Assembly (NCBI GenBank): GCA_030669415.1
Contig: DAOVDS010000002.1
Location: forward strand, 1-47,307
DNA length: 47,307 nt
Direction: 5' to 3'
Source: a bacterium
Lineage (GTDB): Bacteria > Planctomycetota > SKW154 > DAOVDS01
Part shown: one piece after another, positions 284 to 2,009 of the stretch
Numbering within the stretch: position 1 is the stretch's first letter
Layout of the letters: each line of letters begins with the position of its first letter
The notes under the pieces: generated by a model
What the model saw: only the letters and a program-made list of their open reading frames with translations
Told to the model about the DNA's origin: nothing
The model's database searches: none
Made by a program: the position numbers and the translations under genes

Positions 284-1303
284 ATGAGTACGCAACAAGT
301 CATCCTGGAGCTTGAGACTAAGAGGGACTCCAACGTTATTGCTTTTATTACCTCTGACCGCCCGCCGCCCGTGGCTGCAAAAATAGCGGGCGACGTGATA
401 CGCATTTTTTACGAGCACTTGACGAGTCTTGAGGAGAAGGCAAATCTCGACCTGTTTATCCACAGCAGAGGTGGCGACACAGCAGTACCTTGGCGGCTGG
501 TGAATCTGTTGAGGGAGTTCTGTTCAAACCTCACTGTGCTGGTTCCATACAGAGCCCACAGTGCTGCAACCTTGATTGCCTTGGGCGCAAACAAAATCAT
601 CATGAGTCGTTTGGGCGAGCTTTCACCGATTGACCCAACCGTCGGCACGCCCTTCAACCCTTCTCACCCCACAAACCCCCAACAGCAAGTGGAGATAGGT
701 GTAGAAGACGTAATCGGGTTTTTCAACTTCACCAGGGAGCGTATCGGAATTACCGACCAAGGGAAGGTCCTTCGCGTGCTTGAAAAGTTTGTGGACAACC
801 TTCACCCCCTGGCAATAGGCGGGATATATAGGTCTCATTCTTTCATAAGGATGATTGCTACGGAACTCCTATCCCTTCACATGACAGGAAAGGGCGAAGA
901 GGTGAAAATCCCGCATATTGTCGAACACATGGTCGAGAAGCTCTACTATCACAACTACTCGATTCCTTGGAAAGAAGCTAAGAAGATTGGCCTAAAAGTG
1001 GTCAAAGCAGATGACGAAACAGAAAAGCTCCTGATGAACCTTCACTTCGAGTATGAAAAGGAAATGAGCCTCGGCAAGCCCTTCAACCCGGAGGAGTTCT
1101 TAGCGGGAGGCAATACGGGAGAGAAAGTAGTCAGCTTGGCGGTCGTAGAAAGCAAAGGAAAGAAGTCTAAGGTTCTCAAGAAAATCAAAGTCACAAGAAA
1201 CGCTATCCCTCCTGGTGCGCCGCCTGGGGCCATACCACCCTATTCGGTACATCAGGAGTTTCTGGGGTGGCAGACTGTGGAACCGGAAGGGAGCACATCA
1301 TGA
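284..1303 (+). CDS. SDH-family (ClpP/crotonase-fold, S49-like) serine protease, probably cytoplasmic
   Basis: 339 aa. Motifs LDLFIHSRGGD, VLVPYRAHSAATLIALGA (nucleophile Ser), LGELSPIDP (Asp) and LYYHNYSIPWKEAKKIGLKV (His) match the SDH_sah family. No signal peptide seen. Confidence 0.85.
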   Translation: MSTQQVILELETKRDSNVIAFITSDRPPPVAAKIAGDVIRIFYEHLTSLEEKANLDLFIHSRGGDTAVPWRLVNLLREFCSNLTVLVPYRAHSAATLIALGANKIIMSRLGELSPIDPTVGTPFNPSHPTNPQQQVEIGVEDVIGFFNFTRERIGITDQGKVLRVLEKFVDNLHPLAIGGIYRSHSFIRMIATELLSLHMTGKGEEVKIPHIVEHMVEKLYYHNYSIPWKEAKKIGLKVVKADDETEKLLMNLHFEYEKEMSLGKPFNPEEFLAGGNTGEKVVSLAVVESKGKKSKVLKKIKVTRNAIPPGAPPGAIPPYSVHQEFLGWQTVEPEGSTS

Positions 1304-1575
1304 AATGCACTGCGGGGGGCAACAGCCCCAATGGCTTCTTCTTGACGATACAGGCTCAAGAAACCTATCCAGCTCTTGGAGAGCAGTTCACAGCTTACGC
1401 TTCTGCCGACAGTCCTCCGCTCTTTGCTCTGTACGAGACAGAATGGCAACCTATGCCCACGGCACAAGATGTGCTGCTTATAGACGAAGAAGCGATAGCA
1501 GAGGACTTCGAGCTTGCAGAGATGGGTCTGGACGAATACTGCGATATACTGGCTCGTGAAGATGAAGAAGCCTAA
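1300..1575 (+). CDS. Small acidic protein, putative antitoxin of the downstream MazF
   Basis: ATG 1300 overlaps the protease stop (ATGA) and its stop overlaps the mazF start (TAATG). 91 aa with a very acidic C-terminus (DEEAIAEDFELAEMGLDEYCDILAREDEEA), as expected of a toxin-binding tail. Confidence 0.65.
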   Translation: MKCTAGGNSPNGFFLTIQAQETYPALGEQFTAYASADSPPLFALYETEWQPMPTAQDVLLIDEEAIAEDFELAEMGLDEYCDILAREDEEA

Positions 1576-1910
1576 TGACGCGGCGAGAAGTCTACTATGC
1601 AAATCTCAACCCTGCTCGTGGTTCTGAACAGAAGGGACTGCGTCCAGTTGTTATTGTGCAGGCTGACTTCGTAGCATCTTTCACTCAGACTGTAGTCATC
1701 GTGCCATTCACCACCAATATGAATCGTGCCAGACTCCTTACCTGCGTTTTCGTGCCTAAAGATGAAGGAGGACTGCGGGAGGATTCTGTAGCTCTTTGCC
1801 ACCACGTAAGGGCAATAGACTCGTCAAGACTGTCTGACTACTGGGGAAAGCTCTCAGAGGAATATACGGCCCGAATTGATGCTGCATTAGCACTAACTCT
1901 CGGACATTGA
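1575..1910 (+). CDS. mazF: MazF/PemK-family endoribonuclease toxin
   Basis: 111 aa. EVYYANLNPARGSEQKGLRPVVIVQ, IVPFTT, GGLREDSVALCHHVRAIDSSRL are typical PemK/MazF motifs. Confidence 0.93.
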   Translation: MTRREVYYANLNPARGSEQKGLRPVVIVQADFVASFTQTVVIVPFTTNMNRARLLTCVFVPKDEGGLREDSVALCHHVRAIDSSRLSDYWGKLSEEYTARIDAALALTLGH

Positions 1911-1974: not shown

Positions 1975-2009
1975 GTAAGCGTTCAGCCCGTGTGGTGCTG
2001 AACGCTTAC
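1975..2009. repeat. Perfect 13-bp inverted repeat (REP/MITE-like hairpin)
   Basis: GTAAGCGTTCAGC (1975-1987), 9-nt loop, GCTGAACGCTTAC (1997-2009). No U-tract follows. Confidence 0.8.

Follow-up and report, generated by a model that had tools for sequence, protein, structure and literature searches.

At the left end of a 47,307-nucleotide stretch of a Planctomycetota contig (DAOVDS010000002.1; "the window" below means this whole stretch), three genes encode, in order, an SDH-type ClpP-fold serine protease, a small acidic protein (open reading frame 2, ORF2) and a MazF toxin. An earlier interpretation made from the letters alone, here called the sequence-only reading, took them for a protease-antitoxin-toxin system. 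Comparing the three genes with relatives from other genomes, metagenomes and viral contigs, we found a protease that recurs at the head of operons with exchangeable toxin cassettes. The features of the locus are as follows.

284..1303, forward strand: ORF of 339 amino acids (aa), SDH-type ClpP-fold serine protease gene.
1285..1293, forward strand: Shine-Dalgarno-like GGAAGGGAG, read from the sequence, inside the end of the protease gene and 6 nt 5' of the ORF2 ATG.
1300..1575, forward strand: ORF2, an ORF of 91 aa with an isoelectric point (pI) of 4.1, putative hybrid antitoxin.
1486..1563, forward strand: C-terminal tail of ORF2 (about residues 63-88), delimited by local alignment, likely the MazF-neutralising segment.
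1575..1910, forward strand: ORF of 111 aa with a PF02452 match, MazF/PemK endoribonuclease toxin of the EndoA/MazF-Bs type.
1975..2009, strand not applicable: perfect inverted repeat with arms of 13 bp and a loop of 9 nt, 65 nt 3' of the MazF stop.

The three ORFs are, as far as sequence can tell, translationally coupled. The ORF2 start overlaps the protease stop by 4 nt in the ATGA at 1300-1303, and the ORF2 stop overlaps the MazF start by 1 nt in the TAATG at 1573-1577, both as the sequence-only reading had them. Its remark that this DNA is richer in A+T than the host genes also holds, with a G+C fraction of 0.45-0.54 in segments over 1-2200 versus 0.57-0.64 in segments from 2201 to about 8000. 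The single candidate promoter that it placed before the three genes was not recovered, as a sigma-70 scan of 1-2400 gave no site upstream of 284; the sole 12-of-12 match in that range, a perfect TTGACA-17-TATAAT with a TG extension, lies at 2174-2202 and was assigned to the next gene (2234-2917). A TTGACA at 279-284 overlaps the protease start codon, and the contig starts at window base 1, leaving the left edge of the operon out of view. The 13-bp inverted repeat may mark the end of the transcript or the edge of an island; it has no T-run, and the terminator scan made no call there.

Pfam bears out both domain calls of the sequence-only reading, that of an SDH/ClpP-fold protease and that of MazF. 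The third gene matches PemK_toxin (PF02452) at an E-value (E) of 7.2e-27, and the best matches of its product in the PDB are 7bxy, 4hke, S. aureus MazF and B. subtilis EndoA, with E between 4e-20 and 7e-19. In the alignment with these PDB matches, Arg23 and Thr46 fall on residues of B. subtilis-type MazF that we take to be catalytic in B. subtilis EndoA, and by these features the window MazF looks intact.

The first gene matches SDH_protease (PF01972; E 7.7e-15, 55.1 bits versus a cut-off of 31.3) over residues 4-122 only, the N-terminal third, and phrog_11747 (function unknown; E 7.8e-43) over residues 5-271. Its score against NCBIfam Clp_like_SDH (NF047768), 60.3 bits, stays under the equivalog cut-off of 250, suggesting that the window protease represents a divergent subfamily; no homologue shares more than 46% identity with it. 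An AlphaFold2 model built with 80 homologues has a predicted local distance difference test score (pLDDT) of 94.2, and its best Foldseek matches are the 1510-N/NfeD protease, SppA and ClpP (E 1e-5 to 1e-4), so that the predicted structure has a ClpP/crotonase-like fold. In 80 distinct homologues Asp117 and His223 are conserved at 100% and Ser93 at 99%, and Gly63-Gly64 is likewise conserved. We regard Ser93, Asp117 and His223, the Ser, Asp and His motif residues singled out earlier, as putative catalytic residues, and the protease is probably active because two of them are invariant and the third nearly so. As also noted earlier, there is no signal peptide: the N-terminus lacks a hydrophobic signal-like stretch, and the protease is predicted by sequence to be cytoplasmic.

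ORF2, rightly described before as acidic given its computed pI, is a predicted chimera of an acidic MazF-antitoxin-type tail and a unique N-terminal part of about 60 residues. The ORFs that precede 27 MazF homologues of the window's phylum served as the comparison set. One of these partners, from the ordinary two-gene MazF module at locus L190, agrees with ORF2 over the last ~25 residues (local alignment score 63, z 8.9, reached by 0/2000 composition-preserving shuffles), and the N-terminal parts of the two proteins are unrelated (z -0.25). The partners at L162 and L178 have the same tail in weaker form (z ~4). The likeness of the tails is seen only by Smith-Waterman alignment with shuffles, and BLASTP of ORF2 against the L190 partner gave no match. 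The first ~60 residues of ORF2 match nothing and hold no recognisable DNA-binding domain. As a whole, ORF2 has no family in Pfam (E up to 10), NCBIfam, PADLOC or PHROGs and no full-length relative among 5.8 billion clusters or 1.84 billion representatives. Its best ESM-Atlas feature match, a cluster of MazE/EndoAI C-terminal domains, scored 0.76, which is below the counting level and serves as a lead only.

Two other matches of ORF2 were set aside. Designed "Cake" repeat proteins, returned by a PDB sequence search, are an artefact, their scores being sums of ~4-bit repeats with no single significant stretch, and a 2084-aa repetitive protein from the search of representatives (E 5.8e-6) was treated as compositional.

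Homologues of the protease were collected from four sources: 30 loci from a one-genome-per-species set, 71 metagenome loci, 34 loci on IMG/VR viral contigs, and the loci found among 401 genomes of the same phylum. In all, 153 loci were analysed, and the 122 with a complete protease ORF fell into 81 clusters at 90% identity. A recognised toxin-antitoxin cassette stands straight behind the protease in at least 8 of the 81 clusters (PIN 3, PemK 2, YafQ 2, Panacea 1), a lower bound since the Pfam scans took in selected downstream ORFs. Outside this count are L041, with a weak ParE-like match below the cut-off, and several unclassified third genes. The counted arrangements, each read in the direction of the protease gene, are these.

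Protease, small unclassifiable ORF, PemK: loci L094/L137 and L150.
Protease, small unclassifiable ORF, PIN: loci L004/L044/L046, L129 and L148.
Protease, small unclassifiable ORF, YafQ: loci L071 and L073.
Protease, Panacea (SocA-like) protein (PF13274, E 8.8e-22), unclassified 141-aa gene: loci L061-L067 and L086.

At the toxin loci the junctions between the protease and the next ORF are all tight, ranging between an overlap of 44 nt and a gap of 11 nt, and that at L004 is a 4-nt overlap as in the window. A scan of 14 protease-linked middle ORFs found no DNA-binding family in any of them; among the 27 ordinary MazF partners, Pfam finds RHH_1 in 7, RHH_5 in 4 and HTH_3 in 1. Most protease homologues are accompanied by a small partner ORF alone, or by none, and no toxin. 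In 12 of the 81 clusters this partner belongs to a conserved family of ~70 aa that we call "IKN"; the remaining clusters have another small ORF (29), none found by the crude ORF caller (30) or a contig edge (2).

The protease and the cassettes behind it appear to have been recombined many times. In a FastTree phylogeny of 80 proteases, read without inspection of support values, the toxin-linked ones are scattered among the rest. The PemK-linked protease of L094 is 53-54% identical to YafQ-linked proteases, 51% to proteases with a small partner only and 46% to the Panacea-linked one. The PemK cassette of L150 is homologous to that of L094 (toxins 54% identical, antitoxin tails alike at E 7e-11), and the protease ahead of it has only 31% identity to the L094 protease; the two antitoxins share their C-terminal tails only. 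That related proteases head different cassettes, and that one PemK cassette follows such distant proteases, suggests repeated reshuffling of heads and cassettes. Moreover, the window MazF has no detectable BLAST kinship to the PemK proteins of L094/L137 and L150 (E 0.19 or worse), suggesting that it joined a protease independently, and a tblastn search of all protease loci with ORF2 and MazF gave zero matches, so that the window cassette is not closely related to those of the other PemK triads. The sequence-only reading, which had staked its case on a triad conserved in other genomes, is thus upheld in its general plan and not in its particulars: protease, small ORF and type II toxin recur together, with PemK in two other triads, and the exact triad of the window is not conserved. 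What is conserved, judging from these comparisons, is the protease head with exchangeable cassettes.

Several of the homologous loci have further features. In L006 (3267-3518; also in L050 and L056), a minimal nucleotidyltransferase (MNT; Polbeta PF18765, E 2e-8) follows a pair of protease and IKN partner and may be a further cassette type. The Panacea protein of L061-L067 and L086, two of whose contigs are labelled human gut, has a Ser-rich N-terminal extension of ~60 residues ahead of the Panacea domain at residues 67-158, and the 141-aa gene after it matches no family. Loci L025-L030 and L096 encode a distant SDH-protease subfamily of 300 aa that matches query residues 4-120 only. Upstream of it, as read by eye, are encoded a Cys-rich protein of ~110 aa and either a ThiF/E1-like protein or one of ~510 aa that bears a JAB-like HxHPG motif, a neighbourhood that looks like a ubiquitin-like conjugation context. 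In L028 (3737-6156), from a metagenome-assembled genome (MAG) of Micrarchaeota, a 409-aa protease homologue stands in tandem with a 386-aa ORF, the two sharing LGANKIIM and PIDP motifs by eye; one batch-scanned downstream ORF matched SDH_protease and is probably this 386-aa ORF.

The distribution of the protease is sporadic. It occurs in 18 of the 401 genomes of the phylum, the window's own included, and in none of 5 sampled genomes of the window's own family or order. Prophages of E. coli and a phage-plasmid have the protease gene, under the annotation "SDH family Clp fold serine proteinase", in the interval from the Q antiterminator to the holin; on a Chlorohelix plasmid it is accompanied by a 74-aa hypothetical gene. 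The hosts of its relatives include candidate phyla radiation (CPR)/Patescibacteria, a Woesearchaeota MAG, Bacteroidota and Enterobacteriaceae, and plasmids carry it as well. MazF homologues occur in 70 of the 401 genomes of the phylum. The best reading of the three window genes is that they are one operon, probably acquired horizontally. At the 3' end of the SDH gene in the E. coli prophage and the phage-plasmid there is an overlapping Ser/Thr-rich ORF of 59 aa (L191, 6923-7102; L159, 3217-3396) that has no annotation; it is probably a small partner gene that was overlooked.

Two variant short contigs (X1 record 6 and X3 record 18; from two runs, with 5-6 differing letters and a depth of ~4) match the window only right of ~2022-2028. 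Left of that point both carry sequence unlike the window's, and also different from each other, which hints weakly at a right edge of the inserted unit just past the hairpin at 1975-2009. The gene at 2234-2917 has weak EndoIII/HhH-GPD-like matches under the cut-off. The window stretch is present in four DNA sequencing runs of one marine-sediment study, with no RNA run listed, and these runs are uninformative on expression.

We consider it likely that the three genes work together as a single unit. More tentatively, and stopping just short of calling it probable, we propose that the protease controls the toxin by acting on ORF2 and thereby freeing MazF. In the resting state the tail of ORF2 would plug MazF and keep the toxin silent, and the N-terminal part of ORF2 would be the client of the co-encoded protease. 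Once the protease cuts or degrades ORF2, free MazF would cleave cellular RNA, phage RNA or both, and growth would stop. The protease might be fired by a signal such as phage infection, in which case the outcome would be abortive infection. We favour such a triggered version because relatives of the protease occupy prophage accessory slots and viral contigs, and because a unit of small protein and SDH protease (FS_HP_SDH_sah) is listed as anti-phage. Antitoxin cleavage, the phage trigger and abortive infection are steps that we infer, and as no sequence feature ties the N-terminus of ORF2 to the protease, the case for antitoxin proteolysis draws on gene arrangement and recurrence.

A number of results weigh against this proposal. 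There is no direct evidence of the protease touching ORF2, and ORF2 is an orphan, so that conservation offers no means of linking its N-terminal part with the protease. The hidden Markov model (HMM) of the IKN family matches neither ORF2 nor any toxin-linked middle ORF (hhalign probability 0.2%), and a motif of aromatic and Ser/Thr residues derived from the toxin-linked ORFs failed to generalise, occurring in 10 of 33 held-out sequences versus 85 of 479 controls (p 0.064, not significant; value reached by 65/1000 shuffles). The first 50 residues of the ORFs downstream of the protease are enriched in Ser/Thr (0.197 versus 0.143, Mann-Whitney p 3e-7, with controls that may hold spurious ORFs), and ORF2 is not Ser/Thr-rich (0.16). 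No recognised toxin follows the protease in 73 of the 81 clusters, suggesting that the protease has a toxin-independent role. PADLOC 2.0.0 matches none of the three proteins, and the window ORFs to the right of the operon are housekeeping-like and form no defence island. Finally, the L190 partner, which belongs to a plain two-gene module, also has no Pfam domain; the missing DNA-binding domain is therefore not peculiar to protease-linked antitoxins, and the contrast is modest. A complex prediction for the protease (alignment A2) with ORF2 scored 0.00 versus a mark of 0.32, with controls not run, and counts neither way.

Much of this would also be expected if the protease, with or without its small partner, were self-sufficient, for example as an FS_HP_SDH_sah-like defence or a prophage accessory gene, and if MazEF-type cassettes landed in the same variable slot and were co-transcribed with it with no biochemical link. 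The toxin-less majority of clusters fits such chance lodging, as do the dissimilarity from locus to locus of the ORFs behind the protease, the absence of any sequence feature shared by ORF2 with other downstream ORFs, the mobility of toxin-antitoxin cassettes and the abundance of MazF homologues in the phylum. However, 8 of 81 clusters is well over the rate of about 1% at which, by a rough estimate, a toxin would be expected in any one given neighbour position, the junctions are all operon-tight, including the 4-nt overlaps in the window and L004, and the association has been rebuilt with differing proteases and toxins. Moreover, none of the 14 middle ORFs has the DNA-binding domain usual in free-standing autoregulated cassettes. 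We judge chance lodging unlikely. A constitutive protease is another way to read the operon: by turning over the antitoxin without any trigger, it would make the cassette an addiction module that kills after segregational loss in any host, with no need of host Lon or ClpP. Self-contained degradation of this kind would suit host-hopping, and relatives are indeed spread over CPR/Patescibacteria, a Woesearchaeota MAG, Bacteroidota, Enterobacteriaceae and plasmids. The window copy, however, is apparently chromosomal and adjoins housekeeping genes, toxin-less two-gene versions cannot be addiction modules in this way, and a prophage accessory position fits defence better, all of which makes untriggered addiction rather unlikely.

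The roles could also be reversed, as in the type VI-like SocAB arrangement, with the middle protein bridging the toxin to a dedicated protease that continuously destroys it; a block of protease or adaptor, for instance by a phage factor, would then let the toxin build up and stop growth. SocA is a proteolytic adaptor for ClpXP, and one cassette type pairs a SocA-like Panacea protein with the unclassified 141-aa gene. The two-part build of ORF2 would suit a bridge as well as a substrate; yet its tail is like that of an ordinary neutralising antitoxin, MazF, PIN and YafQ toxins are established as stable proteins held by labile antitoxins, and there is no evidence of toxin degradation. We regard an adaptor role of ORF2 as very unlikely.

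How type II toxins are released from their antitoxins has long been disputed; the role of host Lon and ClpP is contested, and triggers are known for few systems. An operon with its own protease beside antitoxin and toxin offers a compact test case free of host factors, in which one can ask whether antitoxin proteolysis frees active toxin and what turns the protease on. The recurrence of such protease-headed operons suggests that they may constitute an undescribed class of toxin systems carrying their own protease. That one protease family repeatedly stands before different families of toxin also offers a way into the so far unexplained defence modules with SDH proteases in prophages and satellites. 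A broader generalisation is possible and, to our minds, somewhat doubtful: SDH-type ClpP-fold proteases would be the exchangeable head of a widespread and undescribed protease-gated toxin class with at least four unrelated cassettes (MazF/PemK, PIN, YafQ/RelE-like and Panacea-linked), whose chimeric antitoxins would have a protease-client segment in place of the DNA-binding domain and would be destroyed on a phage cue. If true, such a class would also explain how the orphan defence pair of small protein and SDH protease works.

The arrangement is apparently undescribed. The sequence-only reading recognised no named system in it, in agreement with the lack of a PADLOC match, and we found no description in the literature of PF01972 or another ClpP-like protease linked to toxin-antitoxin cassettes (supplementary files lay outside the search). 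On the best reading, the window operon is related to type II toxin-antitoxin systems, to tripartite toxin-antitoxin systems and to the SDH-protease defence pair. The last of these, FS_HP_SDH_sah, is little studied and is the closest named system, one that the sequence-only reading did not mention; the likeness rests on a shared Pfam family and the pairing of genes. It was reportedly found by Fillol-Salom et al. 2022 on phage-inducible chromosomal islands. In both, a PF01972 protease and a small protein of no known class are encoded side by side on DNA that is mobile or linked to phages, whereas the window adds a MazF toxin and its small protein carries a MazF-antitoxin tail. We know of no mechanism for FS_HP_SDH_sah. 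DefenseFinder lists it as a small protein plus an SDH protease, and the name occurs in PMC13532340.

With MazEF and EndoA-EndoAI the window operon appears to share a PemK/MazF-fold toxin of the EndoA type, with its Arg and Thr, preceded by a small, acidic, coupled gene whose tail is of the toxin-binding type and resembles that of another MazF partner. Unlike their antitoxins, ORF2 has no N-terminal AbrB/SpoVT or ribbon-helix-helix (RHH) DNA-binding domain (no family at E up to 10), and a protease gene is joined upstream in the operon. A report on Tai systems (PMC11364771) does not mention proteases.

The nearest published concept is the prediction by Makarova et al. 2009 (PMC2701414) of three-component systems with a COG2856 Zn protease that cleaves the Xre antitoxin/repressor of RelE or PIN toxins. 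There too, a type II toxin would have a dedicated protease to cleave its antitoxin or repressor, but the enzyme is a metalloprotease of the HEXXH kind, in most cases either fused to a helix-turn-helix (HTH) protein or paired with one, whereas the window has a ClpP-fold serine protease and no HTH. Consistent with this, no Pfam family of HEXXH Zn-metalloproteases (COG2856/ImmA type) or Xre HTH domains was found on the three window proteins. Rosmer is a case related to the COG2856-Xre systems.

Release of an effector by a protease from the same operon also has precedents outside type II modules. In CalpL-CalpT and in bacterial gasdermins with their proteases, an operon-encoded protease frees an effector, toxic or regulatory, by cleaving an inhibitory partner or segment, and CalpL is activated by a cyclic nucleotide. 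The window operon would work in a similar way; it differs in its protease family and its effector, and no sensor domain is evident in it. Toxin-antitoxin-chaperone (TAC) systems are tripartite type II modules in which a SecB-like chaperone acts on an extension of the antitoxin and protects it, and their toxin families are interchangeable. The window operon resembles them as a tripartite type II module with a dedicated third protein and interchangeable toxin families, but it has no SecB-like chaperone gene and its gene order differs. Where the third protein of TAC is a protective chaperone, that of the window is a ClpP-fold protease expected to destroy the antitoxin, and the window operon would be a protease counterpart to the chaperone-controlled TAC systems.

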